Source: a virus. Taken from it: a DNA stretch of 64,000 bases. Location: positions 1-64,000 of the IMG/VR virus record IMGVR_UViG_3300025112_000005; one strand, given 5' to 3'. The notes beneath the pieces are model-generated. The model worked only from the letters and a program-made list of their open reading frames with translations, was not told where the DNA came from and made no database searches. The translations under genes and the position numbers were made by a program. How positions within the stretch are numbered: the stretch's first letter is position 1; each line of letters starts with the position of its first letter. Below, in pieces: positions 24,130 through 55,166 of this stretch.

Positions 24130-27100
24130 ATGTTGACGATGGCGAGCGTGGCGCGGTTGGCGAAGGCGAAGGGCAAGGACTACCGCGAGCGCGAAGCGGC
24201 GGGCCAAACGACCCTCTTCGGCGGCGGCGCCAGTGACGCGGACAGCGGTCACAGGCCCCGACGGCGTCGTCCCCGGGGGCCGGGCGCTGAGGCGGAACGC
24301 AATCACGCACTTCGCTCGCAGCATCACCGGAAGAGGGCGGAGGATCACCAGCATCGACGCACGCCGGGGGCGCCGGGGGCGCAGGAGCACGCACAGGCGA
24401 TCATGGCGCACAACAACGCGGCGGACGCACACAACGCGGCGCGGACGGCGCACGCGGAGGGCCGACCCGGGGCAGAAGCAGCCGCGGAGCGAGCGAACGA
24501 CCGGACACGAGACGCGGAAGCCGCATCTATCAGGGCGAGGAGCAAGGAAACCCCTCGCCACACGGGGCGCCACGGTGAGGAGGGGGGCCGAGGTAGTGGC
24601 CGGATCCGCGACGCGCTGGACCCCGGCGGGCGAGCGCCTGCCCCGCGTGATCCGGTGTCTGACCACCAGATCGGACGCAGGGCCGCGCACCACGCAGACG
24701 CAGCAGCCGCACACCGCGCCGTGGCAGCAGGACGCCCGTCCGACGCGAAGCAACACCGCGCCGCGGCAGACGCGCACGAGAACGCGTCTGTGCTACATGC
24801 GGCAGGGCACGCCGACGCAGGCCGGGCGAGCGTTGAAGCGCTGGCGGCCAGCGATGCCGTTGCGGGTGGACGCGGTGCCACGAGCAGCGGCGATGATGCC
24901 CGGGACCGGCGCGAGGGGGAGGCCCGCGGGCGCGTCGCCCAGGCGAAGGCGAAGCTGGACGCGGCGAAGAAGAAGGCCGGCGACAAGCCCCCGAGCGGCT
25001 ACTACCCCGCGAAGCGCTCCAAGAAGGGCGGCTTTACGGACGGCAAGGGCAACTACTGGTACCCCGGCAAGGGCGCGAAGCCCGCGGGGGCTCACGACGG
25101 CGAGCACGGCAAGGACGCGGCGCTGGCGCACCACGACGAGCGCCGGGCGCACCACGACGAGATGGCGCTGGAGCACAAGAAGGCGGCGGCTGATCCCTAC
25201 CGGACGATGGAGAGCCGGGGGAAGCACGCGGACGCAGAGCGCAAGCACCACCACGCAGCGGTACACCACGGCGCGGCGCACGCAGACATCCGCGCGGGGC
25301 GCGTGGAGCCGAGCGACCCCAAGAGACACGACACCCTGGCGGGGACCACATCCGAGTGGGCCGACGACCACGACCGGGCGCAGTGGAACGACGAAGATGC
25401 GCACCACCACGACGAAGCGGCGCGGCACCGGGCGAAGGCGGCCGAGCTGGGCGGCCACGGGCCGGAGACCCGGGCGCATCTGAACGCGGCGGACGCGCAC
25501 GAAGAGGCGCACCGGCACGGGCGGGGCAGCATCGACACCCGAGCCCGCGACGTGTTCAGCGAGCGGGCCAACAAGGCGGGGGAGAAGGCCACGGCCGCGA
25601 GCAAGGCGGCGCGCAAGAAGGCCACGAGCAAGCCCCATACGCGTCACTCGTTCAATGAGGCGTTGAAGGGGCGAGACCGCAAGGGGCGCGCGGAGCTGTG
25701 GCACGAAGTGCTGGAGGGCGCGGGACTGACGGGGAGCGACCAGCCCAACTGGAACAGCCTCGGCAGCATCGAGACGCTACGTGCGACCCTCGCCCGGCGC
25801 GAGGGCTGGGAGGAGGGCCGCAAGAAGATGGCGGCGCTGGACGCGGAGCTGAAGAAGCGCGGGATGTTGCCCCTCACCGACGACGAGATGATGGACCGCG
25901 AAGCAGCGCGCATGGACGCGGAGGGCGTGCCCCACCCGCGTGACGCCCTGGACGCGCACACGGCGTACAAGAAGACCAAGGGTGCACTGGGTACGGATCT
26001 GGTCGAGTACCTGGAGATGAACGCATACAAGGTGCCCCCCGGGGCGCACGACCTGACGTCGTTGACGGACAAGGAACTGCGCAAGCTCAAGGGGCAGGTG
26101 TGGAACGCGCTGAACGCCCCTGGACACGGCCATGCGTCGGTTCGCACACGGCGGCAGGCGCGGAAGGCGGCGAGCGCCCTGAGCGCGGAGGCGGATCGGC
26201 GTCTCAACGAGGGACACAAGGACAAGGCGGATCGGCGCAAGACCGGCGGCTTCGGCTCCCAGGCCGAGGTAGACGCGGCGTTTGAGGGCGGCGACCCGAT
26301 GGGGCTGGACCCCAACGCGGCGGCCAGTGCGTCCATGAAGCAGAAGCCCGGCGCGGTGAAGCAGGCTGCGGCGGCGAGCGTCAGCGCGCGGACGGAGAAG
26401 GACACGCCGAAGCCGGGGAGCCACGCTGCATTGGTCGCGGCGGGGAAGGCGGCTCTGGAGCGTGCGGACCACCCGCAACACAAGGTGCCGAAGGCCCTGC
26501 TGAACCGGGGCGGGCGCCTGGGACGTGAGCGGGGCATCAAGGAGGCGGCGGAGAGCTGGTACAAGCACCCGGGCCACAGCGGGATGCCGGCGCGGCACGA
26601 GGTGATCAAGCAGGTGCAGAAGGACCGGCAGCGGTGGCACGAGGACGGCGGTGGCAAGGGGTCGAGTAAGGTCGCGGACTTGGCGCCGAGCTACCTGCAC
26701 GAGTACGCGAAGCACGCGGCGTCTCAGTACGGGGACACGCCGCAGGCGGCCCCCGACCCCCAGGAACACGGGCTGTCGGGTGGGGAGGCGGCGGATCTGG
26801 TCAGCCGCTTCACGAAGCTCATGGGCACGCCCGAGGAGCCCACGAGCTGGTCCGGCGACCACGGAGGTGCGCAGATGCCCGCTGAGCACGGGCACGGCGA
26901 GGACTTCCACAGGCGGCTGATGACCGAGGCGCGCACAAACGCGGCGTCGTCCCGTTCGGGTATCCACAACAGCGCCCACCTGCACCGCATCGTCCAGCAG
27001 GCGGACCAGCACGTGGCCGACTTCGCGGAGAGCAAGAGCAGTCACCGTAGCGGCGGTGCTGTGGCGACGTACCACCCCGACGAAGAGCAGCACTGGGGCA

Positions 27101-27225
27101 CGGCGATGGCTGCGCTCCAGAACGCGCACGGCGATACGCACCGCTTCGAGGCGAAGCGCCGCAAGACGGACAACCAGATGGTGATTCGGGCTCACCGGAA
27201 GTCGGGGAAGAGCCCAAAAGCGTAG
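24130..27225 (+). CDS. Giant His/Ala-rich modular protein 1 (putative virion internal protein)
   Basis: GGAGG RBS; N-terminal LAKA, YREREAAGQTTLFG; PPSGYYPAKRSKKGGFTDGKGNYWYPG tag; HxxAADAH repeats. Confidence 0.8.
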   Translation: MLTMASVARLAKAKGKDYREREAAGQTTLFGGGASDADSGHRPRRRRPRGPGAEAERNHALRSQHHRKRAEDHQHRRTPGAPGAQEHAQAIMAHNNAADAHNAARTAHAEGRPGAEAAAERANDRTRDAEAASIRARSKETPRHTGRHGEEGGRGSGRIRDALDPGGRAPAPRDPVSDHQIGRRAAHHADAAAAHRAVAAGRPSDAKQHRAAADAHENASVLHAAGHADAGRASVEALAASDAVAGGRGATSSGDDARDRREGEARGRVAQAKAKLDAAKKKAGDKPPSGYYPAKRSKKGGFTDGKGNYWYPGKGAKPAGAHDGEHGKDAALAHHDERRAHHDEMALEHKKAAADPYRTMESRGKHADAERKHHHAAVHHGAAHADIRAGRVEPSDPKRHDTLAGTTSEWADDHDRAQWNDEDAHHHDEAARHRAKAAELGGHGPETRAHLNAADAHEEAHRHGRGSIDTRARDVFSERANKAGEKATAASKAARKKATSKPHTRHSFNEALKGRDRKGRAELWHEVLEGAGLTGSDQPNWNSLGSIETLRATLARREGWEEGRKKMAALDAELKKRGMLPLTDDEMMDREAARMDAEGVPHPRDALDAHTAYKKTKGALGTDLVEYLEMNAYKVPPGAHDLTSLTDKELRKLKGQVWNALNAPGHGHASVRTRRQARKAASALSAEADRRLNEGHKDKADRRKTGGFGSQAEVDAAFEGGDPMGLDPNAAASASMKQKPGAVKQAAAASVSARTEKDTPKPGSHAALVAAGKAALERADHPQHKVPKALLNRGGRLGRERGIKEAAESWYKHPGHSGMPARHEVIKQVQKDRQRWHEDGGGKGSSKVADLAPSYLHEYAKHAASQYGDTPQAAPDPQEHGLSGGEAADLVSRFTKLMGTPEEPTSWSGDHGGAQMPAEHGHGEDFHRRLMTEARTNAASSRSGIHNSAHLHRIVQQADQHVADFAESKSSHRSGGAVATYHPDEEQHWGTAMAALQNAHGDTHRFEAKRRKTDNQMVIRAHRKSGKSPKA

Positions 27226-28895: not shown

Positions 28896-30613
28896 GCATC
28901 GCGGCTCAGCTCCTCGCGACCCCCGAGGGGCGCCGAGGGCTGGCCGCGGGGTCCCCCGCTTTCTTCGACACGCTTTATTGCGGGATGCGGCAGGCGGCGC
29001 ACCGACGGCGCTGGCTGGACGTGGTCGAAGAGACGATGGTCACCGCGCGGCGGACCCGTCGGAAGGGGCGGCTGCTGCTGTTGGCCCCGCGTGACCACGG
29101 CAAGACCGAGCTGGCGATCAGCCTTGCGCTGCGGCAGGTGTGTTTGAACCGCGACGTGCGGATCTTGTGGATCAGCGAAGCGGCGGGCGTGGCAGAGAAG
29201 CGCGTGCGGCGCCTACGGTCGTTGCTTACGTCGGACAAGGTCGCGGAGGATTGGTGCAGCGCCCCGGAGGCGGGGCTGGGACCTTTCCGAGCGAACGACG
29301 AGAAATGGACAAACACCCAGCTCTACGTCACCCGCAAGCTGGCCAGCGTGGACCCCACGATCGAGGCGGTCGGCAGCGGCGGCGCAATCACGGGCGGTCA
29401 CTTTGATCTGATTCTGTGCGACGACCTGGAAGACGACCGGACGACGTACACGGAGGGCCAGCGCGAGAAGACGCGCACGTGGTGGGCGGGCACCGTGCTT
29501 CCAATGCTCAACCGCGGCGGAACGCTGGCGGTGATCGGGACGCGCAAGCACGCCGACGACCTATATGCCCGGCTGCGGAAGTCGCCATTGTGGCGCGTGA
29601 TCGAGGACCCCGCGATCCTGAAGTGGCCCGACGCGCACGAGGTTGAGACGGAGCCCGACCCGAAGACCGGGCAGGAGCTTGTCACCCGGATCCGCGTCGA
29701 GGGCGATTCTGAAGTGCTGTGGCCCGAGGAGCGCCCCATCGAGTACCTGCTGGGCGAGCGCTACGGCATGGGCTCGCTGTTCTTCGCCCGCGAGTTTCAG
29801 CACCAAGTGCAGGACGACAGCGCGGCGGCGTTCAAGTGGGAGTGGTTGGAGCTGGCGAAGAAGCGCGGGCGCGGGCTGCACCTGGGCCAGCTCCCGCCCG
29901 TGGAGGACCTTCTGCTGGTGCAGGGCTGGGACCTTGCGCTGGTGACCGACGAGGATCGAGCGCGCGCCCAGGACAGCGACTACGTGGTGGGCATCGGCTG
30001 GGGCAAGGACCCGAAGACGGGTGACCGCTACCTCGTGAGCGGGCTACGCAAGCGCGGCATGTCCCCCGGGCGCATCCGGGGCGAGGTCATGGGCGAATTC
30101 GAGGCGCTGGGCGGGCTGCGCAAGGTGCGTGCGGTTGGCGTCGAGCGGAACGCGTTCGGGGAGCTGCACTACATGGGGCTCAAGCGGACGACGGACCTAC
30201 CGATCAAGCCCCACATGACGACGGGGCCGAAGAAGGCCGACCCGTGGGAGGGCGTGCCCGCGCTGGCCACGCTCTTCGAGAACGGAAAGGTGGTGCTGCC
30301 CTACCACCCCGACGACCCCGAGGGGCGGGCGTTCGTGGACGTGCTGTGCGCGGAGCTGTGGGGGCTGGGGCGCGAGGCGCACGACGACACCGTCATGGCG
30401 CTGTGGATCGCGGAGTGCGTGCTGCGCGGCGCCGGCTTCCAATACCGCGTGGCGACGGGCGACGCGATCCACGAGATGGCGGGGACCGTGTACGACGAGC
30501 CCCCGATCAAGGCAGACGACAGGCGGTCCCAAGAGCTGTGGGACGGCATCGCGGGGATGTTCCCCGGAGCGGATTTCGGAGACGATGATGACGACGACGA
30601 AGCTGATCCGTAA
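28892..30613 (+). CDS. terL: Terminase large subunit
   Basis: APRDHGKT Walker A, ITGGHFDLILCDD Walker B, GTRKH, GWDLA RNase H-like nuclease, VERNAF, HDDTVMA; GTG start 28892. Confidence 0.95.
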   Translation: MSIAAQLLATPEGRRGLAAGSPAFFDTLYCGMRQAAHRRRWLDVVEETMVTARRTRRKGRLLLLAPRDHGKTELAISLALRQVCLNRDVRILWISEAAGVAEKRVRRLRSLLTSDKVAEDWCSAPEAGLGPFRANDEKWTNTQLYVTRKLASVDPTIEAVGSGGAITGGHFDLILCDDLEDDRTTYTEGQREKTRTWWAGTVLPMLNRGGTLAVIGTRKHADDLYARLRKSPLWRVIEDPAILKWPDAHEVETEPDPKTGQELVTRIRVEGDSEVLWPEERPIEYLLGERYGMGSLFFAREFQHQVQDDSAAAFKWEWLELAKKRGRGLHLGQLPPVEDLLLVQGWDLALVTDEDRARAQDSDYVVGIGWGKDPKTGDRYLVSGLRKRGMSPGRIRGEVMGEFEALGGLRKVRAVGVERNAFGELHYMGLKRTTDLPIKPHMTTGPKKADPWEGVPALATLFENGKVVLPYHPDDPEGRAFVDVLCAELWGLGREAHDDTVMALWIAECVLRGAGFQYRVATGDAIHEMAGTVYDEPPIKADDRRSQELWDGIAGMFPGADFGDDDDDDEADP

Positions 30614-30827: not shown

Positions 30828-30848
30828 CCGTGTAGGATGGGCGGCGGA

Positions 30849-33800
30849 ATGCTGACCTATGCCGAGCTGATCAAGGCGCACGCGGCGACCTACCATGGCA
30901 AGGGGCGCCGTACGGGTGTGCCGGGGCACTACAGCTACGACTACGACGAGCCCGCGCGGCGGGGCAGTGGGCGCGGCCAGCGCAAGCGGGAGGCGCTGGA
31001 GGCGGCGGGCCAGCTCTCGTTGCTGGGTCCAATGCAGCCAAGCGCGGCGCCCCCCGCCGCCCGTGAGGAGCCGAAGCCCGAGCGCCCCCAGCTCGCGCAC
31101 GACCACCCCGCGGTGAGTGAGCCCAGCGCGCGCATCACCCGGTACGACCTGAAGCAAGCGGCTGGCGTGCGCGCCGAGCTGGCGAAGATCGCGGACGAGC
31201 TGGAGAAGCTGCCCAACGGCGCAGACTGGCGACATGGCCGAGCGCGCGAGCTGGTTCGCGAAGTGGGCCGCGCCAGCACAAACGTCTTGCGGTGGGCGAT
31301 GAAGCTGGAGCTGTGGGACAAACCCGACCACGAGGGCGGGCTGGACGCATTGATGAGCGGGCTCAACCGCAGCAGCGTGCTGGAGGGCGGCCCCCAGGCG
31401 ACCGCGCGGCGCCTTCGGCGCATTCACAGAAAGCTGGCCGCGTCGGCGAAGCGTGGGACTGAGGACGTGTCCCACGAGGAGCGGCTGGAGACGCAGCAGG
31501 TGGGCGCCGTCCAGCTACAGGTCAGCAGGCACGAGGCAACGCCGGAGATGGCCCGTTCGCTCGCTCACGATCTGCGCGAAGCGCAGGGGCGCATGAAGCG
31601 CGCGGGGTTCCACGAGGCGTACAAAGGCGGGCGGGTCACCCTCAAGAAGCACGCGCGGGAGCACGAGGCGCGATACATGCGAAACGGCCGGTCAGCGGAC
31701 ACGGTCGAGTGGAACACCAATTCGCTGGGTACGCTGGGGGAGCACGAGGAGACAGTGGCGTCCATCGTCCACGAATTCGGACACCGGCACTACTACCGCA
31801 ACCTGCCCAGCCGCGCCGTTGAAGGGTGGGACGCCGAGTCTGCGCGCATGGTCAACGTGGCGCGCGAGGACGTGGACAAGCTGGCCGACTACACGGCGCG
31901 CTTCGCCAGCGACGCGCAGCGCGACGGGGCCACTTACAGCGAGAGGCTGGGGACGGAAAGCGCGTTCTCCGAACGGGTGCGTGCCCACATCACCAATGAC
32001 CCTGACCTGGACCCGGAGACCCGCGCGCTTTACACGGCGATGGTGGGGGTCGTGGGGGAAGACCTGGAAAGCAGGCTGACGACCACCTGGGCGCACCCCG
32101 GCGACCGCCAGCACGGGCTTGACGATGTGCGGAAAGAGATGCGCGAGAAGCTGGTGGGTGCGCATGTGCCCGTTCACTGGACAACGCAGTACGGGAGCAC
32201 CAAGCCAGAGGAGGCATACGCGGAGGCGTTCAAGCTCTACGTGATGCGAGGCCCCCGAGCCCTGGGTGAGCGCACCCGAAAGTTCTTCGAGCACATTAGC
32301 AGCCTGCGCAAGGCGCAAGGCGCGTTCTCAGCACCGCTGGACACCGTGATGGAGCACCGGAAACAGCTCCGCGCGGGGCGGTTGGTAGACGCGATGGATA
32401 AGGCGCTGGGGGTTTTCCGATGCAGGCGTGGCACGCCGAGGGGCTGGCGCTGCTTTGCGGATCTGGTGAAGGCATACACTGCGTATCGCGGGAAGGGCAC
32501 GCGCCACGGCTCCCCGGGGAGCTACACCTACACCTACGACGATGAGCCCAAGGCGAAGGCGAAGAAGAAGGGGCGCCACACGGTGCTCCCCACGTGGGAC
32601 GCCCCCGAGCGCATCGACCTGACTCTGGTGGGGTGCAGCAAGTCGAAGGTGGACCACGACGACCCCGTGGCCGTGCGGGACCTGTACCGCAAAGACCTGT
32701 GGAACAAGCGGCGGGGGTTCGCGGAGGCGCGCTCGCGCCACGGCACCCCCTGGGCGGTGGTCAGCGCCGGCTTGGGCATTGTGGACCCCGACACCCAGGC
32801 GACGCGCTACGACACCCAGGTAAAGGATTTGAAGGGCGACGCGCGGAGCGAGTGGGTGCGCAACACGCGCGAGAGCCTGCGGCAGAAGCTACCCCGCGGC
32901 GGGCGCCTGGAAGTGATCGCCGGGCGTGACTACGTGGCGATGCTGCGGGAGGCGGTCGAGGGGCTGGGCATCGAGCTGGTTAACCCGCTCAAGAGCGTGG
33001 GCACAGGCGACGGGAAGCACTGGCTGGCGGCGCAGACGGATCTGCTGAACAACAAGCCCGCGCCCCGGGAGCCTGAGCAGCTGCGCCCCGCGCAGCAGCA
33101 GCTCTCCCTGTTCGGCCCCGACGACTGGCCCAAGAAGCGCGCGGCGCCCACGCTCTCCGCGTACGCCGAACTGCGCCCCCTGCGAAAGAAGCACGCGGCG
33201 GCAGAGGGTGCGTGGAAGAGGGTGCTGGGGGCAGCGGAGCGGCTGCTGGTGGCGACGGACTACGCGGAGCCCCACACGGTCGAGACGACCCGAGGGACCT
33301 ACAAGTACAAGGGGGGCACCCATCGACCCCCCCAGGCGAGCGGGGGGCGGCTGGCGCCCGAGGTGACCCACCAGTTTGCAGGCGTGCTCCCGCAGGGGCG
33401 GCTTACGCCGGAGAAGCTACATGCGGGGAGGCTGGCGGCGGCGGAGACGATGGCGCGGACGATGAGCCTGGACGAGACCCCCGCGGGTGTTCCGCGCTGG
33501 TGGAAGGCCGAGCGGAAGAGGTTCGTGGACGCTGTGGCGGAGCTGCGCGGTGCGCGTGACACGTACACGTCGATCACGCGACTGTTCCCGGGGAAGCGCT
33601 TCGAGACCCCGAAGGTAGGCCGCGCCCTGGAGAAGATGGCCCTGGAACGCCGAGGGCTGGAGCGCGAGGCGGACGAACTAGACATCCCCCTGCGGCGGTA
33701 CTTCGCCAGCGGGTCCAACAACGCGGGGGAGATTCGCGGGTTTGCTGCGCTGGGCATGAACGTGGGCGTGGCGGTGGACCAGATCAACAGCGCGTCCCTG

Positions 33801-34799
33801 GAAGCGATCCGAGAGCTGCGTGGCAACGGAACCCAGGTGTTCGTGGACTCCGGCGCGTTCGGAGAGGTCAAGTTCAACGTGCCGAACAAGAAAGGCAAGC
33901 TGCCAAAGCCGGACCTGCCCATCGGCCCGTACACGGTGCGCCCCATCACACACGAGGACTGGACCACCCGACTGGCGCTCTACGACCGCATCGTGGACGC
34001 GGCGGGTGCCCAGGCGCACGTCGTCGCGCCGGACAAGATCGCCGACCAAGCGACGACGCTGGAGCGAATGCGGAAGTACGCGCCGGAGATGCAGGCGCTC
34101 CGCGAGAAGGGCGCCAACGTGCTCGCCCCGTTGCAGGGCGGCGGCGCTCTGACGCTGGCGCAGTTTGAGGACAAGGTGACCGAGGCGCTAGGCTTTGACG
34201 ACTACGTGCGGGCGATCCCGATGAAATCGAACGCCACGAGCCCCGAGGTCTTGGAGGCGTTTCTGGAGGAGCGACGCCCGAAGCGCATCCACCTGCTGGG
34301 CCTGGGGCCGAGCAGCGACGCGTTCCCCGCGATCAGGGAGATGATCCAGCGGGTCAGCCCCCATACGTCCGTTACGCTGGACAGCGTGGCAATCACGGCG
34401 GCCGTGGGTCGCCCCAAATCAAAGAAGACTGGGGAGCTGCTGGAGCCGCGCAAGCTGTCCCGGGCGACCGATTGGGTGAGACGAGAGATGAGCCCGCAAT
34501 ACGACAGAGACGCCGATTACACGGACCTGATTGGCGCCCCGAGCGAGTGGATGCCGCTGGCCCAACAGCAGCGCGTTGCGCGCGACCTGGATGCGATGGG
34601 GCACGACGGGGCTGCGTTCTTGCGCGACCCTGACGGGTGGCTCCAAGAGGACGAGGGGGACGGTGCCCCGCCGAACTACGAGCTGCCGGAGGTGGCGCAC
34701 CTAATGGATCAGGTGTGGGGCAACTGGTGGGAGGACCGGGACGAGCACACGGCGGCCGTCAAGCGCGCGGCCGTGATGGAAGCGTGGGCGGCATCGTGA
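30849..34799 (+). CDS. Giant modular protein 2: zincin peptidase + DUF6884-like + TGT/DpdA-like domain
   Basis: HEFGH...YG.T.PEEAYAEAF; LVGCSKSK...DLY...VVSAGLG...YD; FVDSGAF...APDKI...PLQGG...IHLLGLG...LDS; LIKA and LVKA each followed by a KGxRxGxPGxYxYxYD tag. Confidence 0.8.
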   Translation: MLTYAELIKAHAATYHGKGRRTGVPGHYSYDYDEPARRGSGRGQRKREALEAAGQLSLLGPMQPSAAPPAAREEPKPERPQLAHDHPAVSEPSARITRYDLKQAAGVRAELAKIADELEKLPNGADWRHGRARELVREVGRASTNVLRWAMKLELWDKPDHEGGLDALMSGLNRSSVLEGGPQATARRLRRIHRKLAASAKRGTEDVSHEERLETQQVGAVQLQVSRHEATPEMARSLAHDLREAQGRMKRAGFHEAYKGGRVTLKKHAREHEARYMRNGRSADTVEWNTNSLGTLGEHEETVASIVHEFGHRHYYRNLPSRAVEGWDAESARMVNVAREDVDKLADYTARFASDAQRDGATYSERLGTESAFSERVRAHITNDPDLDPETRALYTAMVGVVGEDLESRLTTTWAHPGDRQHGLDDVRKEMREKLVGAHVPVHWTTQYGSTKPEEAYAEAFKLYVMRGPRALGERTRKFFEHISSLRKAQGAFSAPLDTVMEHRKQLRAGRLVDAMDKALGVFRCRRGTPRGWRCFADLVKAYTAYRGKGTRHGSPGSYTYTYDDEPKAKAKKKGRHTVLPTWDAPERIDLTLVGCSKSKVDHDDPVAVRDLYRKDLWNKRRGFAEARSRHGTPWAVVSAGLGIVDPDTQATRYDTQVKDLKGDARSEWVRNTRESLRQKLPRGGRLEVIAGRDYVAMLREAVEGLGIELVNPLKSVGTGDGKHWLAAQTDLLNNKPAPREPEQLRPAQQQLSLFGPDDWPKKRAAPTLSAYAELRPLRKKHAAAEGAWKRVLGAAERLLVATDYAEPHTVETTRGTYKYKGGTHRPPQASGGRLAPEVTHQFAGVLPQGRLTPEKLHAGRLAAAETMARTMSLDETPAGVPRWWKAERKRFVDAVAELRGARDTYTSITRLFPGKRFETPKVGRALEKMALERRGLEREADELDIPLRRYFASGSNNAGEIRGFAALGMNVGVAVDQINSASLEAIRELRGNGTQVFVDSGAFGEVKFNVPNKKGKLPKPDLPIGPYTVRPITHEDWTTRLALYDRIVDAAGAQAHVVAPDKIADQATTLERMRKYAPEMQALREKGANVLAPLQGGGALTLAQFEDKVTEALGFDDYVRAIPMKSNATSPEVLEAFLEERRPKRIHLLGLGPSSDAFPAIREMIQRVSPHTSVTLDSVAITAAVGRPKSKKTGELLEPRKLSRATDWVRREMSPQYDRDADYTDLIGAPSEWMPLAQQQRVARDLDAMGHDGAAFLRDPDGWLQEDEGDGAPPNYELPEVAHLMDQVWGNWWEDRDEHTAAVKRAAVMEAWAAS

Positions 34800-35646: not shown

Positions 35647-35649
35647 CGG

Positions 35650-36051
35650 GTGGCCACCCTACGCGGCGAAGTAACCGGATCCGCGAACGCCAACAACGCG
35701 GCGCGGCTGGCCACGATCTGGGGGGACGGGGTTCTTGTCTACGACACGGACGATGACCGGCTCTACGTCGGCGACGGGGAGACCGCAGGCGGTAATCCGC
35801 TCGCTGAGGGCGGGACTACGCCCATCCCCGGGCACCCGCATTTGTTTCAAGGAGATGGGGCCACGACCGTTTTCACGCTACCGTGGACCCCGTTGACGGC
35901 TTCGGCCCGTGTGTGCCGAAACGGCTTGCAGATCGAGCGAAGCCCGACGCCTGGGGATAAGGACGAATTCCTGATCGCCGGTAACAAAATCACTTTCGGG
36001 GCTCCCCCCGGTACGCTGGACCGTCTTTCGGTCTCGGCGTGGACCCGCTAG
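35650..36051 (+). CDS. Fibre/decoration-associated protein
   Basis: GVLVYDTDDDRLYVGDGETAGG (Mtd-N/hyaluronidase-N-like motif) and GDGATTVFTLP...RNGL domain. Confidence 0.6.
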   Translation: MATLRGEVTGSANANNAARLATIWGDGVLVYDTDDDRLYVGDGETAGGNPLAEGGTTPIPGHPHLFQGDGATTVFTLPWTPLTASARVCRNGLQIERSPTPGDKDEFLIAGNKITFGAPPGTLDRLSVSAWTR

Positions 36052-36071
36052 AGCGAGAGGGAAAGCAGCAC

Positions 36072-46593: not shown

Positions 46594-49500
46594 GCCAGCT
46601 CGGACTCTTCAGCCACGTGGTCCAACAGGCGACGGCGAAGCCGAAGCCGAAGCCGAAGCCGAAGCCCGGGGGACACCACCACCCGCCCCCCGGCTACCAC
46701 CCCGCGCCCCGGAGCCGTAAGGGCGGCTGGACGGACGGCAAAAACTACTGGTACCCCGGCGATCCGCACCCGAAGCCCCGGGCGGCGGCAGCCGAGCCCG
46801 AGCCCACTCCGACACCGCACCCGGAGCCCGTGGCGCCTACGACACCCCCGGAGCAGGCCACCGTGTTCGGGGGCGAGCACAGCAGCGTCACGCAGGAGCC
46901 CGAGGAGACACCCGCGCCGACGGAGCCGACCCCCGCGGTGGTGGTTGAGCCCGCGGCCGAGCCCGAGCACGCCAAGCCTGACGAGCTGTGGGCAGACGAA
47001 GACGACGATTTTGACGACCCCGACGGCGACGGCTTCGATCTGTGGGACCTGATGGCCGAGGAGGGCGTGGCAGCGCCCGAGGAGCACGAGGCGGAGCTAC
47101 TACACCCCGACTGGTCGGCGGAGCCGAGCGAGCGCCCCCAGGGGCAGGCGGAGCTGGTGGGCGAGGAGGAGGAGCCCGCGGAGGAGCCCGCGGAGGAGCC
47201 CGCGGAGGAGCCGGGGACCGAGCAGGAGACTGAAGCCGACGACATGGCGCGTCGGATGCAGGAGCGGTTGAAGGAACGCGCGGCGCAAGAAGGCGCGGAG
47301 CGCGAAGCCCGTGTGGCGGCGGAAGAAGCGCAGCTCGCCGAAGAGCTGCGGCTGGCGTCCTTCGCGTATGGCTACGAGGTGCCCCAGCACGCGGTGCTGC
47401 CCCGGGAGCTGGACGAGAAGGCCCGTTACCGGCTGTGGGTGAAGGACGGCGACGCGTGGACGCGTGTCGATGAGCCGGAGGGGGTGTTTCGGCACAAAGG
47501 GGGGATGTTCCGAGGCGCTTGGGTGCGTCCCGTATGGGACCGGACGCTTGAGGCGTACGAAGGGCAGTCCCCCGTCTTCATGCCCAGCGACCGCGTTCCG
47601 GCGTCGGAGGCGTTGGGCGCGCTGATCAAGATCGGGGAGCACGAGGTCAGTCCCGACCGACCGCCGAATTTCCTGGGGTTGATCCCCGAGAAGCTGGTGC
47701 GTCGGCGCCTTGTCACGGTGGAAGACGAGGACGGGAAGCCCGTACGGGACGAAGATGGCCGGTTGGTCCAGAAAGAGGGCGCGCTGGCGGGCGCGGGTGC
47801 GTCCCGGCAATACCGGGATTACTACAGCGGCAACCTCGTTTGGGCGCACGACAACATCCAGTCCCAGGATTGCACGGACACGTGGCTGATCGAGTCGGGG
47901 TTCTACGACGCGGTGCAGGGTCCGGCGACGGGGACCGACCGGCATGGCGAGCCGATCAGCCTGTCCGACCAGCAGCGCGACCGGCGGCTGGCGGTGCTGC
48001 ACAGCAACGTCCAGGGCATCGACTGGCTGAAGCTGCGGGAGCAGAAGCACGTCAAGATCTGGGAGAAGACGCAGCGCGATTTGACGGCGTGGTGGACCAA
48101 CATCACCAACGAGCAGCGCGAGCACTTCTGGACGAACTACTGCCACCGGGACAAGCAGAACACGCTGGCGAAGACTGCGGATCCGCGCCATGAGCTGGCG
48201 GAGTTCGCCGTGCCGAAGGGCATGGAGAAGATGTCGGCGCTGCGGGGTCCCTACTGGCGGGAAGACGCCACGACCTGGGCAGACGCAGAGCACACGATCC
48301 CGTGGCACGACCGGGACCCCGACAACCCCAAGCACGGCAAGCCGTGGGACTTCCACGTCTACCAGAAGAAGGCGGCCAACTTCGTCGTGGACCATGCGCC
48401 GCGTTCCATCCTCGCGATGGAGATGGGGCTGGGCAAGACCCTAACCGCGCTGGGCGCGTTCCACGAGCTGAAGCAGCGCGGCGAAATCGACCAGATGATC
48501 GTAAGCGCCCCGGTGAGCGCGATGGGGAGCTGGGAAGAGCACTTCGGGGATCTGTCCGACGCGCGGGTGGGCATCGCGAACGGATCCAAGAAGCAGAAAG
48601 AGCGGGTCGTCCAGCAGTTCGAGCGCGGCGAGCTGGACGTGTTGGTGGTGACCACGGACGCAATCGCCATCGACATGAAGAAGGCGAAGGAGCTGGACGA
48701 GGTTCCCAAGGGCGCCAACAAGGTGACCCTCAAGATGAAGGGGAGCTATCGAGGCGCGACCTGGGAGACTTCGTTTCTCCACCGACGGACGGACGGGGAG
48801 GGTTTCTCGATATTCCCTGATACGCGCAAGCTGGCGGGGTGGGATGACATGCGTATAAGCCTGGGCAATCCGCTGGGCTACCAGAAGCACGCGCATGACG
48901 AGGAGCGAAGGCGACAGAGCGGCGGTAAGAGCTACAGCAATGCTATGGCGGAGGCCCGTCGCGCGATCTTAGAGGAAGCGCCCGAAGGGGCCACTATGCA
49001 GACGTACGACGGCTACCTGCGCAAGATGGCTGACGGCACGTGGGCCGCACCGCGCGAAGATCGGGGCGGGTGGAAGGCCGGGAGGCGTACGTCTGATTCG
49101 ATCTGTGGGCGGGGGGATCTGACGGTCTGCTCTGCCCGACACTTGTCCGGCGAGGTGAAGCGCATTCAGCTGGATGCGGGGGATGTCAAGCTCGCGTACG
49201 AGAATCCCGAATCCAACAAGGCGCGTCTCCAGGCGATGATGGAGGCCAAGGGGAAGCGGACGCTGCGCGTTGCCGACGAGCTGCACAAGTTCAAGAACCC
49301 CAACAGCAACCGCGCCCGTGGCTTCTTTGACGTGTTCACCGAGCCCGAGGGGCGGGTGATCGGAATGACCGGCACGCCCAAGCCCAACGGGATGCAGGAC
49401 TTTTACACCATCATGGACCACGTGGCACCCGGCAGCCTGGGCGACACCTACGCCGATTTCTCGGAGCGGTACAGCTACCGTTACCGGGCGTTCGGGGCGG

Positions 49501-50555
49501 ACAAGGTGGCGGGGCTCCGGCCCGAGCAGTTGCCGAAGCTGTACGAGGACAGCGCGCACGTGATGTTCGTGCGGACCACCAACGACCCGGACAGCAAGAT
49601 CATCTTGCCCAAGCGCCGCGACCTGTCCCCGTCGATCCCCCTGTCCGATTTTCAGGAGAAGGTCACGACGGCCTTTGGCGAGTGGGTCGCGGTGAAGCGC
49701 GTGATCCAGATCCTCGGCAACCGGGAGAACCCCGGGCCGGAGTACGAGGCGGCCGTGGAGAAGCTGGCGGCGGCTGAGCGCGGAGACATGGGGAGCGTTG
49801 CCCAGGTGGCCGCGTCGGGGGCGCATACGGACGCGCAGGTAATGCTGATGCGTGCTCAGCAGCTTGCGATCAGCCCGTCGTTGCTGTCCCCCGCCTGGGG
49901 CGAGGCAAACCCGGGGTATGAGTCGCCGAAGACGAAGCTGGTGGCCGATTCGTTTCAAGAGCACATGAGCCAGCAGCCCAGCACGGGCGGCGTGATCTTC
50001 TGCACGTTCAACGACGGAATCGCGGAGATGCAGCGGGCGTTGGTCCGGCGCGGGTTCCGTGAAGACCAGATCGCCGTCTACAAAGGCGGCGTGACGCCCA
50101 AGAAGCGCGCGGAGATCCAGAAGAAGCTGAACAGCGGCGAGCTGAAGGTGGTGCTGGGCAACTCGGCGTCCCTACAGACCGGCGCAAACATGCAGAAACG
50201 CGCCAATTTTGTGGCGCACCTGTCGACCCCGTGGGCTCCCGACGCACTCACGCAGAGCACGGCGCGCGTGTACCGGCAGGGGCAGCAGAACGTCACCACG
50301 ATCCTGCGCCCCGTGGGGTCCGACGCGGAGGCGCTGGTGGAGCGGGTGGTCAGTCGCAAGCTAATGGAGGCGGGGCAGGCGACCGGCAAGACGATGGCGG
50401 CGGACAAGGCGGTGGCGGAGACTGTCCGCGGGGCCAAGCTGGACGCCGCATCAATCGCGAAGGTGCTGGGCATCGACCCCGCGAACTTCGGCAGCGAAGA
50501 GCTGACCGACGCGCTTCGTGAGGAGCTGGGCATGGAGCTTCCCGAGGAGGATTGA
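46590..50555 (+). CDS. Giant modular protein 5: SNF2-family helicase (DarB-like role)
   Basis: YQKKA, EMGLGKT, DELHKFKN, MTGTP, SPK, TGANMQ, PW.P, QSTARVYRQGQ; N-terminal QLGLF and GYHPAPRSRKGGWTDGKNYWY tag. Confidence 0.9.
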   Translation: MSQLGLFSHVVQQATAKPKPKPKPKPGGHHHPPPGYHPAPRSRKGGWTDGKNYWYPGDPHPKPRAAAAEPEPTPTPHPEPVAPTTPPEQATVFGGEHSSVTQEPEETPAPTEPTPAVVVEPAAEPEHAKPDELWADEDDDFDDPDGDGFDLWDLMAEEGVAAPEEHEAELLHPDWSAEPSERPQGQAELVGEEEEPAEEPAEEPAEEPGTEQETEADDMARRMQERLKERAAQEGAEREARVAAEEAQLAEELRLASFAYGYEVPQHAVLPRELDEKARYRLWVKDGDAWTRVDEPEGVFRHKGGMFRGAWVRPVWDRTLEAYEGQSPVFMPSDRVPASEALGALIKIGEHEVSPDRPPNFLGLIPEKLVRRRLVTVEDEDGKPVRDEDGRLVQKEGALAGAGASRQYRDYYSGNLVWAHDNIQSQDCTDTWLIESGFYDAVQGPATGTDRHGEPISLSDQQRDRRLAVLHSNVQGIDWLKLREQKHVKIWEKTQRDLTAWWTNITNEQREHFWTNYCHRDKQNTLAKTADPRHELAEFAVPKGMEKMSALRGPYWREDATTWADAEHTIPWHDRDPDNPKHGKPWDFHVYQKKAANFVVDHAPRSILAMEMGLGKTLTALGAFHELKQRGEIDQMIVSAPVSAMGSWEEHFGDLSDARVGIANGSKKQKERVVQQFERGELDVLVVTTDAIAIDMKKAKELDEVPKGANKVTLKMKGSYRGATWETSFLHRRTDGEGFSIFPDTRKLAGWDDMRISLGNPLGYQKHAHDEERRRQSGGKSYSNAMAEARRAILEEAPEGATMQTYDGYLRKMADGTWAAPREDRGGWKAGRRTSDSICGRGDLTVCSARHLSGEVKRIQLDAGDVKLAYENPESNKARLQAMMEAKGKRTLRVADELHKFKNPNSNRARGFFDVFTEPEGRVIGMTGTPKPNGMQDFYTIMDHVAPGSLGDTYADFSERYSYRYRAFGADKVAGLRPEQLPKLYEDSAHVMFVRTTNDPDSKIILPKRRDLSPSIPLSDFQEKVTTAFGEWVAVKRVIQILGNRENPGPEYEAAVEKLAAAERGDMGSVAQVAASGAHTDAQVMLMRAQQLAISPSLLSPAWGEANPGYESPKTKLVADSFQEHMSQQPSTGGVIFCTFNDGIAEMQRALVRRGFREDQIAVYKGGVTPKKRAEIQKKLNSGELKVVLGNSASLQTGANMQKRANFVAHLSTPWAPDALTQSTARVYRQGQQNVTTILRPVGSDAEALVERVVSRKLMEAGQATGKTMAADKAVAETVRGAKLDAASIAKVLGIDPANFGSEELTDALREELGMELPEED

Positions 50556-50556
50556 C

Positions 50557-50760
50557 ATGGACACAGATCTGACCCCCCAAGAGGCTACGGAGCTGCTTCG
50601 GATGCTCTGCCCCGTCGGCGGGATGAACCCCGCGGAGCCGGAGCCCGTGGAGCGCGCGCGGTTGTGCCGGCGCCTCTACGACCACATCAAGGCGGACAAC
50701 GGGCTGGTGCCCAACTGGCTCAAGCACGACGTGTCCAACATCGTCGGCCCCGCTGCGTGA
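50557..50760 (+). CDS. Small hypothetical protein
   Basis: GGAGG RBS; stop overlaps the next start. Confidence 0.55.
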   Translation: MDTDLTPQEATELLRMLCPVGGMNPAEPEPVERARLCRRLYDHIKADNGLVPNWLKHDVSNIVGPAA

Positions 50761-53700
50761 GCAGCGGACCCTTCATCGGCCCCCGGGGCGGGAAGTGGGC
50801 AGACGCCCAGCACACCGTCCCGTGGCATAGCTCCGAGGGGCGCGACCGGAGGCAGACCAGCCTGCTGGGCGCGGACGACGAGGGCACCAAGCGAAAGAAG
50901 CCCCTGCAACGACTGCGTGAGGGGGAGGTGATGGCGTTCCTCCAATCGCACGGGCACCGAGCGGGGAGCCATGCGGAACCGGGCGGTCACGGAGAGAGCG
51001 GGGTCCACACGCGCCAGCACTCCCGGCAGCAGGTCGAGGTGCGGCACGTCGAGTCACACCACCGGGACCACACGGGGCGCATCCAGCTCCCGGGGGGGGA
51101 GCACGAGGCTCTGAAGAAGCACGAGGCCCGCCAGCACGCCAAGGTGGTGGAGAAGCTGAAGGCTGCGGGGTATCACGTGCGCACGGACGCCGTGGGGCGG
51201 ACGCTGGTCGGTCGGCGAGGGGGAGCGCCCGAGCACGGCCCCCAGCGTGTGCAGGCGGCGAGGCCGAAGAAGAAGCTGGAGCTGGTGGTGGACAACACGC
51301 AGCCGGGGCTGTTCAAGTCGATGGTGGTCCGAGCGCTGTGCAAGGCGCAGGGAGGCCCTTTCATCGGCCCCCGCGGCGGCAAGTGGGCGAACGCCCAGCA
51401 CACGGTCCCGTGGAAGCCCAGCGGCGGGGTGTTGCGGGTGGACGCGGCCCTTGTCCGTGAGACTGTGGACGGGTGGTTTTCTGACTTGCGAGCGATGCCG
51501 GGACAATCCCGGTCGTCCATGATCGAGTACACCCAGGCGGACGGGGCAAAGCGTCGCGCGGTGGCACAGATCGTTGTAGAGGCGAGCACGGGCGATCCGC
51601 GAGGCGTGAAGGGCATCCACCATTACCGGACCACGGGGCAGGGGGGGATGCACAAGGTCGTTGTGCACATCAGTATGCGAAAGCTGGCGGGGAAGATTGA
51701 TACAGCCAAGGAGGCGGTGCGTTCCGTTCTTGCGCACGAGCTGACACACGCGGCCGACGTAGGGCTCCAGAAACGCGCAGAGCGACGCGCACGTGCTCAT
51801 TTCTCAGGGGACAGTAAGGGCGCCGAGCGTCTGAGGGCGAGGGACCATAGCGACGGGTCGGCCAACTACTTCAACCAACCGCATGAAGTCACAGCGAAGA
51901 TGCAGCAGATTCAGCGGGAGTTGTTGGACCCGGGTGTGGGGGGCGCGCTGGTCGAGGATGCAAAAAACCACGCGGACGACCCAGACAACCCGCCGCCGAT
52001 GACGCCCGCGCAACTGCTTGAGTGGGAGAGCCCCTCCTGGGGTGAGGTGAAAGAGCACTATACCCCCGAGAACAAGAAGCGTGTGCTGCGTATGGTGGCG
52101 AAAACCCATGCAGCGCTTTTGTCGGGAGAACTGGAGCCTGTGAAGAAGGCGGGGCCGTTCTCCTACATGGTGCTGGACGCGCTGGCGAAGGCCGCGAAGG
52201 GCGAGAGGCGGCAGGGCGCGAAGTACATTCGGCGCGTGCCCAAGCCCGGGGGCGGCTACCGCTACTACTACGCGGAAAGCAGCGCGGCGCGGTCGGCGAC
52301 CGAGGGCGAGGACGTGCGGCTGGGCGACAAGCTGACCCGGGTCCACAAGGTCCATGCGCACGGTATTGAGATCGAAGACGAGAAGGGCAAGCGCACAGTC
52401 TCGCACGACGAGTGGTCCCACATGCTGCACGAGCATTACGGCTCGCGCTTCTACGAGTGGGCAGAGAAGCGCGCGCGGCAGTACGCGGGCGCGGTGCTCA
52501 AGCACGTTCCCGCGGAGCTGTTCAACGAGCTGAAGGGCGAGACCGACGCCGAGCGCATGGCGGACCTGAAAACCCGGCTGCCCGACGTGCACGCGAAGCT
52601 GGAGAAGGCGTTTTCGCGCGCGGGCGTCAGTCCCGAGGATGCGCACCGCGCTATCTCGCACGTGCTGGAGCGCAAGGGGTGGACGGGCGGCGCCCGGCAA
52701 ACGCTCCTGGGGTCGATGCTCAACCGCGAGACGGCGTGGACCGTTCGGCACTACCGGAGGCTGAGCAAGGCCGCGGAGAACTTGGCGAAGGCCGACGGCG
52801 CGGAGCTGGTCGACCAGAAGCATGTTGCGGCGGCCATCGCGTTGCCGCGCACGGCGACGGCGATGGACCGCGTGGTCAACCGCGCGACGGCGGAGATGCA
52901 CCACATTCGCGCGGTGCTGAAGCTCCAGCTAACCCCGGGGGAGAAGAAGGAGGAGCAGGGCGCGCTGGCGCTGGACACGAAGATGTCCGCTGAGGCGCTG
53001 GCAAAAGTGCGCGCGGCGCACATGATCGGCCAGCTCTCTGTGATGGCTCAAGCGTTCCCGGGGCTGGCGTCGGATCCGGCCATGCAGCAGCTTCGTGTGC
53101 TGCTGGGCAGCCTTCAGTCCGTGGCTCCGCGCACGGAGCCGACGGCGAAGGGCGCGCAGACCACGGTGTACGTCGCGGGCGAATTCGGTTCCCCCGAGCC
53201 CATGACCGCGGAGTACGCGCTGGTCGACGCGGCCGAACTGACTGCGAGCCACGACCCCGTGACGTTCGCGCAGAACGAGGCGCACGACATCGGCAACGAG
53301 CGCGCGTATCACCGCGACAAGGCCGAGCGGGCGAAGGTGATCAAGAACGCCGAAGACCTGAAGCCGGATCTGGTGATCAACACCAACCCGGACGCGACCA
53401 ACGGCGCCCCCATCGTGGACGAAAACGGGGTGGTGTTGGGGGGCAACTCGCGCACCATGTCCATGCAGCGCGTTTACCGGATGGGAGGCGCCCAGGCGGC
53501 GGACCTGAAGGGGTACCTGAAGGGACAGGCGCGACAGTTCGGGTTCAAGCCCGGCGACGTGGAGGCGATGGCCCAGCCGATCCTCGTGCGGAAGGTCCAG
53601 CCCCACGACGACGACCACAAGCGGCTTCTGGTGCGCCAGCTCAACGAGACGTTCATGCAGGCGATGGATCCGCGCACGATGGCGGTCGCGCAGGCGGCGC

Positions 53701-55166
53701 GGCTGGACGACAAGGCGCTGGAGGCGCTGGCCACCGACATGGGGCCGGACAAGACGCTGGCGGCGTTCCTGGGGGCGAAGGCATCTGACGGGTTCGTGAA
53801 CCAGCTCAAGCGCGCGGGCGTGATCAGCGCCCAGAACCAGAACGCGTACATTCGCAAAAACGGGCGGCTCAACGAGAACGGCCGGCAGCTCGTGGAGAAC
53901 GTGCTGGTGGGGAAGGTCGTCGGCGACGCGGACCTGCTGGTGGACCTGCCCCAGCCGCTTGTTGGGGCGCTCGCGCGTGCCGTGCCGTACATGGTGCAGG
54001 CGGAAGGGGCAGGGGCGGCGTACAACATCCGTAGTGAGCTGAAGCACGCGCTGGAGGCGTACACCGACATCAAGAACCGGCCTGAGTTCGGCATCCCGAA
54101 GAGCAAGAAGGAAGCAGCGGCGGTGCTGGAGTCGTGGAAGCGACTCGGCGGAGGGCTCTTTGAGGGTCACGAGGTGTTCAAGAACCCGCGCAGCATGGCG
54201 ATCCTGAACACCCTGTTCACGCAAGCCGGCCCGCGGCAGATGGCCGCCGTGTTCCGCAAGTACGCGGAGGCGGCGGGGCATCAAGAGGCGGGTGGCGGCG
54301 AGGGGCTGGGCTTCTACGAGAAGAAGACCCCCGACGACGTGTTCGGAGAAGCGTTCGGCCGGGCGGAGGACGAAGAGGCGGCGCAGGAGAAGGCCAAGGC
54401 CGCGCGTGAGAAGCACGTGGAGGAGACCAAAGCAGAGGCCAAGAAGAAGGCCAAGGCGAAGGCGGAGCGCGAGGCCCAGAAGGAAGGGCCGCGAAAACTG
54501 TCTGACCTGCCCCACGTGAGAGACGACCCGTGGGACGATGGGACGACGGTTGTTTTTCGACAAAGCCCGTTCCCCAAAGGGGACAAGCCCGCTATTTCAA
54601 GCAAGCTGATCAGCTCCGCGAAGGTCGAAAGCGTGAAGCTGGCGGACCTTCAGGGCTCACAGACCGAGATCACAGAGGTCGGGGTAGAGAAGCACGCGAA
54701 GGCCCCCGACGCGACCACACCGACAAGCGAGCTACCCGTGGTTATTCGTACAGCGGACGGGAAGCACATTATTCAGGACGGGCACCACCGGCTTGCGGCG
54801 GCTGTTTTGCGGGGAGATAAAGACGCCCGTGTGCGCGTGGCGGTCGAGCCCGGTGCCAAAGAAGCGCCCGCGCCGAAGGTTGAGCCCGAGGCGCCCGCGG
54901 TCGATCACGCGGCCAAGGCCGAGGAGCACGACATCGCGGCGGAGAACATGCCCGGCAAGTACCCCGGGCACGCGTGGACGAGCACGAAGGAAGCGGCCCA
55001 GGACGCGCACACCGCGGCGGAGAAGGCGCACCAGAAGGCGCACGCGAGCCCGACCGCGGAGAACAAAGCAGCAGCAGCGGCGGCGACCAAGAAGGCCGAG
55101 GAAGCGGACGCGGCTTCGGAGAAGGAAGAGGCGGACGCGGCAGCGTCGCAGGGCGGGTTGTTCTGA
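50757..55166 (+). CDS. Giant modular protein 6: zincin + DdrB-like ParB + second ParB/Srx domain
   Basis: AHELTH...YFNQPHE; YALVDA.EL.ASHD...ER.Y...NGAPIVD..GVVLGGNSRTM; LPVV...IQDGHHR; GTG start 50757; C-terminal QGGLF. Confidence 0.85.
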   Translation: MSSGPFIGPRGGKWADAQHTVPWHSSEGRDRRQTSLLGADDEGTKRKKPLQRLREGEVMAFLQSHGHRAGSHAEPGGHGESGVHTRQHSRQQVEVRHVESHHRDHTGRIQLPGGEHEALKKHEARQHAKVVEKLKAAGYHVRTDAVGRTLVGRRGGAPEHGPQRVQAARPKKKLELVVDNTQPGLFKSMVVRALCKAQGGPFIGPRGGKWANAQHTVPWKPSGGVLRVDAALVRETVDGWFSDLRAMPGQSRSSMIEYTQADGAKRRAVAQIVVEASTGDPRGVKGIHHYRTTGQGGMHKVVVHISMRKLAGKIDTAKEAVRSVLAHELTHAADVGLQKRAERRARAHFSGDSKGAERLRARDHSDGSANYFNQPHEVTAKMQQIQRELLDPGVGGALVEDAKNHADDPDNPPPMTPAQLLEWESPSWGEVKEHYTPENKKRVLRMVAKTHAALLSGELEPVKKAGPFSYMVLDALAKAAKGERRQGAKYIRRVPKPGGGYRYYYAESSAARSATEGEDVRLGDKLTRVHKVHAHGIEIEDEKGKRTVSHDEWSHMLHEHYGSRFYEWAEKRARQYAGAVLKHVPAELFNELKGETDAERMADLKTRLPDVHAKLEKAFSRAGVSPEDAHRAISHVLERKGWTGGARQTLLGSMLNRETAWTVRHYRRLSKAAENLAKADGAELVDQKHVAAAIALPRTATAMDRVVNRATAEMHHIRAVLKLQLTPGEKKEEQGALALDTKMSAEALAKVRAAHMIGQLSVMAQAFPGLASDPAMQQLRVLLGSLQSVAPRTEPTAKGAQTTVYVAGEFGSPEPMTAEYALVDAAELTASHDPVTFAQNEAHDIGNERAYHRDKAERAKVIKNAEDLKPDLVINTNPDATNGAPIVDENGVVLGGNSRTMSMQRVYRMGGAQAADLKGYLKGQARQFGFKPGDVEAMAQPILVRKVQPHDDDHKRLLVRQLNETFMQAMDPRTMAVAQAARLDDKALEALATDMGPDKTLAAFLGAKASDGFVNQLKRAGVISAQNQNAYIRKNGRLNENGRQLVENVLVGKVVGDADLLVDLPQPLVGALARAVPYMVQAEGAGAAYNIRSELKHALEAYTDIKNRPEFGIPKSKKEAAAVLESWKRLGGGLFEGHEVFKNPRSMAILNTLFTQAGPRQMAAVFRKYAEAAGHQEAGGGEGLGFYEKKTPDDVFGEAFGRAEDEEAAQEKAKAAREKHVEETKAEAKKKAKAKAEREAQKEGPRKLSDLPHVRDDPWDDGTTVVFRQSPFPKGDKPAISSKLISSAKVESVKLADLQGSQTEITEVGVEKHAKAPDATTPTSELPVVIRTADGKHIIQDGHHRLAAAVLRGDKDARVRVAVEPGAKEAPAPKVEPEAPAVDHAAKAEEHDIAAENMPGKYPGHAWTSTKEAAQDAHTAAEKAHQKAHASPTAENKAAAAAATKKAEEADAASEKEEADAAASQGGLF

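Follow-up and report, generated by a model that had tools for sequence, protein, structure and literature searches.

Candidate DnaN-docking peptides in the giant polyvalent proteins of a high-GC phage

The bacterial clamp-binding consensus is QL[S/D]LF (Dalrymple), which the pentapeptide QLSLF fits, and QLGLF is the motif by which E. coli Pol II binds the beta sliding clamp, DnaN (PMC3716654). The motif has been defined as Q-aliphatic-x-[L/M]-[F/L], with a hexamer form Q-aliphatic-x-[L/M]-x-[F/L]; the Gln is important, position 2 is tolerant with Leu best, position 3 is free, position 4 is L/M, position 5 is F in preference to L, and known clients have acidic motif flanks or a free C-terminus (PMC11139829). 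Phage and other mobile-element proteins are also directed at DnaN. MuC of phage Mu, a member of the Mor/C family (family consensus Qx[D/E][L/M]F), binds the clamp experimentally through an N-terminal QHDLF and a C-terminal QPDLF, and titrates it when over-produced (PMC12867686). The staphylococcal phage proteins Twort gp168 and G1 gp240 target DnaN (PMC3594737), and the RmInt1 group II intron protein is named as a mobile-element user of DnaN (PMC6698660). A different kind of short shared peptide is found in T4, whose internal proteins have only a short capsid targeting sequence (CTS) in common (PMC3012670). Here, we describe clamp-motif-like Q-x-x-[L/M]-F peptides in the giant proteins of an uncultured phage, record IMGVR_UViG_3300025112_000005 (80,205 bp in total, graded complete by CheckV), using its first 64 kb (positions 1 to 64,000) as the window, that is, the whole stretch of DNA that was analyzed.

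The window encodes six giant proteins (A, B, C, D, E and G) in + strand open reading frames (ORFs) interspersed with head genes. A first-pass annotation of this DNA had listed eight beta-clamp-like pentapeptides in five of them, and all eight were confirmed in + strand ORFs; the remaining protein, D, has no copy, and neither does its homologue in L003, part of a related phage described below. In A, QTTLF is found at residue 26 (24205-24219; context KDYREREAAG-QTTLF-GGG), within an N-terminal module K-Y-R-E-R-E-A-x-G-Q-x-x-L-F-G that is common to C and the database proteins P0007, P0019, P0024, P0026 and P0030. The copy in C is QLGLF at residue 15 (38250-38264; YREREAEG-QLGLF-GQMVQQAK), the same pentapeptide as in Pol II (PMC3716654), and it pairs with QMRLF of the L003 homologue. 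B contains QLSLL at residue 59 (31011-31025; REALEAAG-QLSLL-GPMQPS), which fits the strict motif definition and has a flank hydrophobic fraction of 0.05, as well as QLSLF at residue 755 (33099-33113), an exact Dalrymple consensus in the linker after DUF6884. E has QLGLF at residues 3-7 (46596-46610; MSQLGLFSHVVQQATAK) and a degenerate copy, QATVF (46854-46868), which is aligned to QLSLF of the L003 SNF2 homologue. G carries three copies: QTSLL at residue 33 (50853-50867, numbered from 50757), which lies in a conserved block RQTS[LI]LGxxDEG and is the weakest candidate; QPGLF at residue 182 (51300-51314), which sits where the first folded module ends, has KSMVVRALCKA and a short sequence tag after it and corresponds to QQGLF in L003 and P0014; and QGGLF (55149-55163) at the extreme C-terminus after the acidic EEADAAAS, with the stop codon at 55164, which is the same in L003 and QGGFF in P0014. 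Two further matches to the pattern Q..L[FL] outside the earlier list, QTDLL at the C-terminal edge of DUF6884 in B (33033-33047) and QRELL within a predicted helix of G (51912-51926), are probably background.

The phage copies obey each rule of the clamp motif, also at positions outside the search pattern. Leu occupies position 2 in 4/8 window copies and 5/8 L003 copies (background 7%), G, S, D or T occurs at position 3, L or M at position 4 in relatives, and F at position 5. QLSLL, QLSLF and QLGLF (twice) fit the strict definition, and the other four (QTTLF, QTSLL, QPGLF and QGGLF) depart from it at the tolerant position 2 alone. The likeness extends into the flanks, in that the internal motif region of E. 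coli DnaE, the only DnaE compared, reads KAEAIGQADMFGVL and is similar to the phage sequences REAEGQLGLFGQM and AEAAGQMSMFGQP. No copy fits the PCNA PIP box (Q-x-x-[ILM]-x-x-[FY]-[FY]), the only PIP-like match in the phage being located inside the SNF2 domain.

We then compared motif counts in the six giant proteins with residue shuffles of the same proteins (n=5000). Q..LF was observed 6 times (0.39 expected), Q..L[FL] 10 times (1.78 expected) and Q..LFG 3 times (0.03 expected), and for each pattern 0/5000 shuffles reached a count as high, so that the enrichment test suggested along with the first-pass annotation places the motif well above background. The strict form Q-aliphatic-x-[L/M]-[F/L] was found 4 times versus 0.73 expected (P about 0.01). 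The 61 remaining ORFs (16,280 residues) contain the strict form once versus 2.19 expected, i.e., without enrichment, and no ORF of the 80-kb phage other than those of the giant proteins contains Q..LF. The motif copies differ in their codons and belong to no DNA repeat family, by which a DNA-level repeat is ruled out as their origin; the differing codons show that selection acts on the protein instead. The earlier proposal that the motifs lie in termini or disordered linkers also gained support. Motif flanks are low in hydrophobic residues, and in an AlphaFold2 (AF2) model of G residues 1-520, built from a shallow 3-sequence alignment, QTSLL (33) and QPGLF (182) lie on either side of a confident domain (residues 50-155), both in coil with a predicted local distance difference test score (pLDDT) below 50. 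Motifs have acidic flanks or are at a free C-terminus, matching the description of clamp clients in PMC11139829.

Conservation of the motif was examined in a related 68%-GC phage (L002-L004) retrieved with the portal protein as query, which has a 69% identical portal and the same gene order; when C and E were each used as single queries against viral contigs, nothing matched. In L003, the C homologue carries QMRLF and QLDLF, the SNF2 homologue QLDLL and QLSLF, and the ParB homologue QQGLF, QLGLF and the C-terminal QGGLF. The alignments with L003 show the core kept, the linkers diverged, the x residues changed and additional copies in L003. The motif of E precedes a tag of the form GYHPAxRSRKGGWTDGxGxYWY, and the motifs of the L003 SNF2 homologue come after it; such positional turnover is the behavior typical of short linear motifs. 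For an independent test, a profile was made from this kind of tag alone, with the motif left out, and was run on two protein collections, resulting in 17 tag-bearing proteins that are not near-identical to ones already in hand. Among them, 9/17 contain a total of 11 copies of Q..[LM]F, versus 0.61 expected. Examples from database proteins include YQEREAGGQLGLFS, KAEQLSLFGE, AAGQMSMFGQ, GTQTTMFGG, AGQMTMFGD, RQQGLFKAVV and a C-terminal QQGGFF. Thus, conservation beyond the flanks is seen both in the L003 homologues and in these nine independent proteins. L and M alternate at position 4 in P0010, P0011 and P0026, and tandem copies 19-28 residues apart occur in relatives. As read from these sequences, the family motif is Q-x-x-[L/M/F]-F, usually followed by G.

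We consider it slightly better than an even chance (a probability of roughly 0.55) that the giant proteins dock on the beta clamp of the host through their Q-x-x-[L/M]-F(-G) peptides. Of the clamp-docking idea put forward in the first-pass annotation, the match to the DnaN motif is real and reaches beyond the searched pattern, and binding itself is the best reading of that match. A phage-encoded clamp of the beta, gp45 or PCNA type was not found by Pfam (PF00712, PF02767, PF02768, PF09116 and PF00705), and two ORFs without assignment (342 aa and 347 aa) gave no match in PDB sequences or the ESM Atlas. The phage has its own family-A polymerase and no recognizable clamp; the partner clamp, if any, would be that of the host. 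Under this reading, the motif in disordered termini and linkers would insert into the hydrophobic cleft between domains II and III of host DnaN and tether DNA-acting modules (the SNF2 helicase, the ParB-like domain, the DUF6884 module and others) to DNA-loaded clamps. After injection, a few molecules would be localized to clamp-marked DNA, and late in infection an abundant unpackaged pool might titrate clamps as over-produced MuC does. The tandem copies of the relatives could engage both pockets of a clamp dimer. The additional suggestion that injected cargo competes with the host replisome is unlikely on stoichiometry, because the few copies in a virion face far more numerous cellular clamps; only for the pool made late would titration be plausible. 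More tentatively, the whole set of virion-delivered multi-enzyme proteins might be addressed to the host clamp by a peptide mimicking the Pol III alpha internal motif and its flanks. Since this phage would replicate with its own clamp-independent family-A polymerase, loaded clamps would mark host DNA or host forks, and helicase, ParB-like and other modules could become concentrated on the host chromosome or replisome within the first minutes after infection. Such a targeting principle for injected effectors would be new, and we hold it to be possible but doubtful.

Several observations weigh against docking on DnaN. The N-terminal copies share a block of about 15 residues (KYREREAxGQLxLFG), which shows common descent and therefore fewer independent events than copies. 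In about one third of the copies, the next residues are x2-3-[MV]-V-x-x-A-x-K, similar to the F-A-D-I-L-A-K-A-K that precedes tags and to a stretch near the capsid protein N-terminus; if that element were a protease site, cleavage would remove the motif of C and that of E within a 15-27-residue peptide. Four of the eight window copies (QTTLF, QTSLL, QPGLF and QGGLF) fail the strict definition, their second residue being non-aliphatic, and QTSLL of G is part of a longer conserved block in which a relative has QTSIL. A family-A polymerase of this type normally needs no beta clamp, and there is no obvious replicative need for one. Moreover, a 2793-aa protein of an Stx phage and a 3421-aa protein of a Pseudoalteromonas phage show no motif enrichment. 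The 50%-GC relatives L005 and L006 share the portal lineage and an LFSDIVKGGK-type element, but their giant ORFs have no Gln-containing motif. In this small sample, the motif appears to be lineage-specific and not general to polyvalent proteins. The SNF2-type giant protein of the distant relative L005 (L005:6017-9616, 51% GC) begins with MMSNLFSDIVKGGKEGG, followed by a GxxxYKY tag, so that the LF-x-x-IV-K element is kept and the Gln is absent. Because L005 retains both this element and the tag, the clamp-like motif of E looks grafted onto an older N-terminal element.

The tags represent a second kind of shared element. Four families of short Gly/aromatic tags are common to the otherwise unrelated giant proteins, and at least one tag is found in each of them: tag A, GYHPAxRSRKGGWTDGxGxYWY (24997-25062, 38352-38417 and 46692-46754); tag B, GPFIGPRGGKWAxAQHTVPW (50766-50825, 51354-51413 and 48246-48305); tag C, YIRRVPKPGGGYRYxY (44308-44355 and 52224-52271); and tag D, GxPGxYxYxY (30915-30944 and 32508-32537). 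The profile of tag A also matches Kelch-type beta-propeller blades (SWTDxxGNLWLFGG), which suggests that the tags form beta-hairpins. Since tags are present in all six giant proteins and the motif is missing from D in both phages, the putative beta-hairpin tags are better candidates for the true packaging signal, which would free the motif for a host-directed role. Another sequence is shared within the head module itself: a C-terminal segment of the protease ORF (56531-57214), TLRKALSVGYQTAAGMDGGFSPLVPQSLEGSV, closely matches the capsid protein (57955-59397) at residues 20-55, ALRKAASVGYQTAAG...FSPLVPQSIESV. The two proteins may thus have a cleavage site (LRK|A) or a docking segment in common in this stretch, with LRKA-SVGYQTAAG near the capsid protein N-terminus.

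The gene neighborhood raises the question of whether the peptide, with or without the hydrophobic-x-x-A-x-K element, is instead a capsid-targeting or processing signal, one that docks cargo on the scaffold, portal or prohead interior or is read by the prohead protease in the manner of the T4 CTS, the clamp likeness being coincidental. The giant genes lie amid terminase, portal, MuF-like, protease, scaffold and capsid genes, and a short CTS is likewise the only thing that T4 internal proteins have in common. In C, E, G (182), P0007, P0011, P0014 and P0026, the Phe of the motif opens the element F-x-x-[MV]-V-x-x-A-x-K, which resembles both F-A-D-I-L-A-K-A-K before the tags and ADLVK...LRKA at the capsid protein N-terminus, and L005 retains MSNLFSDIVKGGK at the equivalent place without Gln. 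However, D bears a tag and is presumably packaged like the others, yet it has no motif in either phage, and the scaffold, protease, MuF-like protein and capsid protein carry no copy. A T4-type CTS is confined to the N-terminus, has a protease site next to it and is present on every internal protein; here one copy is at an extreme C-terminus, and a cleavage-like element follows only about one third of the copies, most being followed by Gly and a Pro/Lys-rich linker. If the peptide were a signal central to assembly, its absence from L005 and L006, which share the portal lineage, would be surprising. The giant proteins show no enrichment of [LIVM]xK[ASG], and the preferences of the clamp motif for Q, L/M and F would have to be matched by chance in an unrelated signal. 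We therefore regard a capsid signal, the main rival to clamp docking, as unlikely.

Docking could also involve a different partner, either another host hub (e.g., through an SSB-tail-like mimic at the acidic C-terminal ...QGGLF) or a phage factor such as a highly divergent clamp. Several phage ORFs have no assignable function, and the C-terminus of G, EEADAAASQGGLF, bears a loose resemblance to acidic tails with a hydrophobic residue and Phe at their very end. Nevertheless, the five Pfam clamp families detected no clamp in the phage, the peptides match the DnaN motif position by position, and the conserved Pro before the final Phe of SSB tails is missing here, which makes another partner quite unlikely. 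It could further be argued that the motif has no function of its own and was simply carried along and retained, as a passenger, when recombination copied a small N-terminal module among the giant proteins. The roughly 15 conserved residues of the N-terminal copies do show shared ancestry, and the adjacent tags are detectable as diverged DNA repeats (families D7 and D8). But nothing beyond the Q-x-x-[LM]-F core is common to the internal and C-terminal copies, the core persists where the flanks have fully diverged, new copies arise at new positions, and the synonymous codon differences between copies show protein-level selection. A passenger origin is thus very unlikely, and docking on host DnaN is the reading that we prefer.

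As for the giant proteins themselves, Pfam domains found in them are LPD1, ddrB-ParB, SNF2-rel_dom with Helicase_C, PAPS_reduct and DUF6884, in addition to zincin-like HExxH modules. A (24130-27225, + strand) is His/Ala/Arg-rich, has no Pfam domain, bears tag A and has homologues P0005, P0006 and P0009-P0011. B (30837-34799, +) combines a zincin-like HEFGH module, DUF6884 (residues 596-731) and a C-terminal domain without assignment; a TGT/DpdA-like identity of the latter had no sequence support against PDB or NCBIfam. C (38208-42383, +) is a polyvalent protein with LPD1 and a CLCA_X-like zincin. The portal gene (42380-44119, +) follows and sets the giant genes within the head-assembly module. 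D (44119-46593, +), the sole giant protein without the motif, belongs to the PAPS-reductase/PP-loop family, E (46590-50555, +) is an SNF2-family helicase, and G (50757-55166, +) contains the ddrB-ParB domain. An 80-aa ORF with high GC3 (50518-50760) overlaps the 5' end of the long G ORF (50664-50757). Because of this overlap, and because the database entry has 1469 aa, the start of G is most likely not 50664 but the GTG at 50757, which overlaps the stop of the 80-aa ORF and gives a 1469-aa protein. By domain content and gene position, the giant proteins are classified as polyvalent proteins sensu Iyer et al. 2017 (PMC5512222), in which one polypeptide combines numerous enzymatic and LPD domains that are unrelated to each other; gene position and membership in this family also suggest that they would be packaged in the capsid and then injected. 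C contains a perfect direct repeat of 45 nt (38649-38693 and 38883-38927) that encodes PKPEEPKRGRDELVE twice. When C is aligned with its L003 homologue, the 234 nt running from one repeat copy to the next are for the most part without a counterpart, and for this reason the region may be a recent internal duplication.

The window has a GC content of 69%. Its left arm codes for a family-A DNA polymerase, a helicase, a PD-(D/E)XK nuclease and a PriCT/D5-like primase-helicase, and its right part is a myovirus structural module with terminase, portal, MuF-like protein, protease, scaffold and SU10-like capsid protein; tail sheath and baseplate genes lie past the window end. The portal is at most 39% identical to SPO1-like phages, and there is no close cultured relative; the best matches in cultured phages are 22-40% identical and their hosts are mixed. 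No tRNA genes were found in the phage, and searches of species-representative genomes with protein C and with the tag profile yielded no relatives. The C-termini of portal and terminase are long poly-Asp/Glu tails (window 43870-44119 and 30560-30613), the portal ending in ...DDDDDDEDEDEDDDDDDEDKVKKALVEV. Between B and C in the head module, a 702-aa protein (36039-38147) contains five copies of a repeat of about 60 aa (DANVTAAKLASGAAVSNxGAGGITSNELG); although no family matches it, a role as a fibre or decoration protein is possible. The window also encodes a 142-aa SLT-type transglycosylase (20890-21318). Further ORFs are located at genome positions 78081-78836, 78836-79087, 79095-79526 and 79789-80142 (segment L001, which is G000 62001-80205), among which are an NlpC/CHAP-like 251-aa protein and an 83-aa membrane protein. 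The 117-aa ORF at genome 79789-80142 has a lipobox-like N-terminus and a C-terminal transmembrane segment and is u-spanin-like. Together with the SLT transglycosylase, the NlpC/CHAP-like, membrane and u-spanin-like proteins hint at a diderm host.

Polyvalent proteins are widespread. A clamp-docking peptide across the whole suite would, if true, give them a concrete address, i.e., DNA with loaded clamps, and virion-associated effectors would join the list of clamp clients beside the recently shown Mu MuC. If so, the giant proteins would also be natural high-avidity clamp ligands, the clamp pocket being an antibacterial target. Should the peptide prove to be a capsid-targeting signal instead, it would serve as a portable tag for capsid targeting in a new phage lineage, which is also of use. 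In literature searches we found no paper tying clamp motifs to polyvalent or injected virion proteins, and the word 'clamp' is absent from the polyvalent-protein paper (PMC5512222).

Comparison with known systems places the motif as follows. With cellular DnaN clients (Pol II QLGLF, Pol III alpha QADMF, UmuC QLNLF, Pol IV QLVLGL and Hda), it shares the pentapeptide, with two exact identities and the same degeneracy, as well as its location in termini or disordered linkers with acidic flanks or a free C-terminus, and, as in E. coli DnaE, the phage copies have 'EA-x-G' before the Gln and Gly after the Phe. Unlike those clients, the carriers are giant multi-enzyme phage proteins encoded in a head cluster, the motif occurs in several copies each and across a whole protein set, binding is predicted from sequence here, and in half of the copies the second residue is non-aliphatic. 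MuC is likewise phage-encoded, with near-consensus motifs at both its N- and C-terminus, Pro at position 2 (QPDLF, compared to QPGLF here) and L/M at position 4 across its family, but it is a small late-transcription activator that uses the clamp to link transcription with replication, not a virion-associated multi-enzyme protein. The RmInt1 protein, Twort gp168 and G1 gp240 are also mobile-element proteins directed at DnaN, although they are single small or unrelated proteins and not a virion-associated enzyme suite. The T4 CTS is likewise a short peptide, the only element common to otherwise unrelated proteins packed in the head; the CTS, however, is strictly N-terminal and removed by the prohead protease, whereas the phage copies are also internal and C-terminal, D has none, and their sequence equals a docking motif of host proteins. 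The giant proteins resemble published polyvalent proteins (PMC5512222) in their LPD1, ddrB-ParB, SNF2, zincin and PAPS-reductase modules, in their position beside head-morphogenesis genes and in their predicted delivery with DNA, and they differ from that description in having a clamp-motif layer and short beta-hairpin tags. What appears to be new here, therefore, is the presence of putative clamp-motif clients, a known class, on a suite of phage polyvalent proteins.

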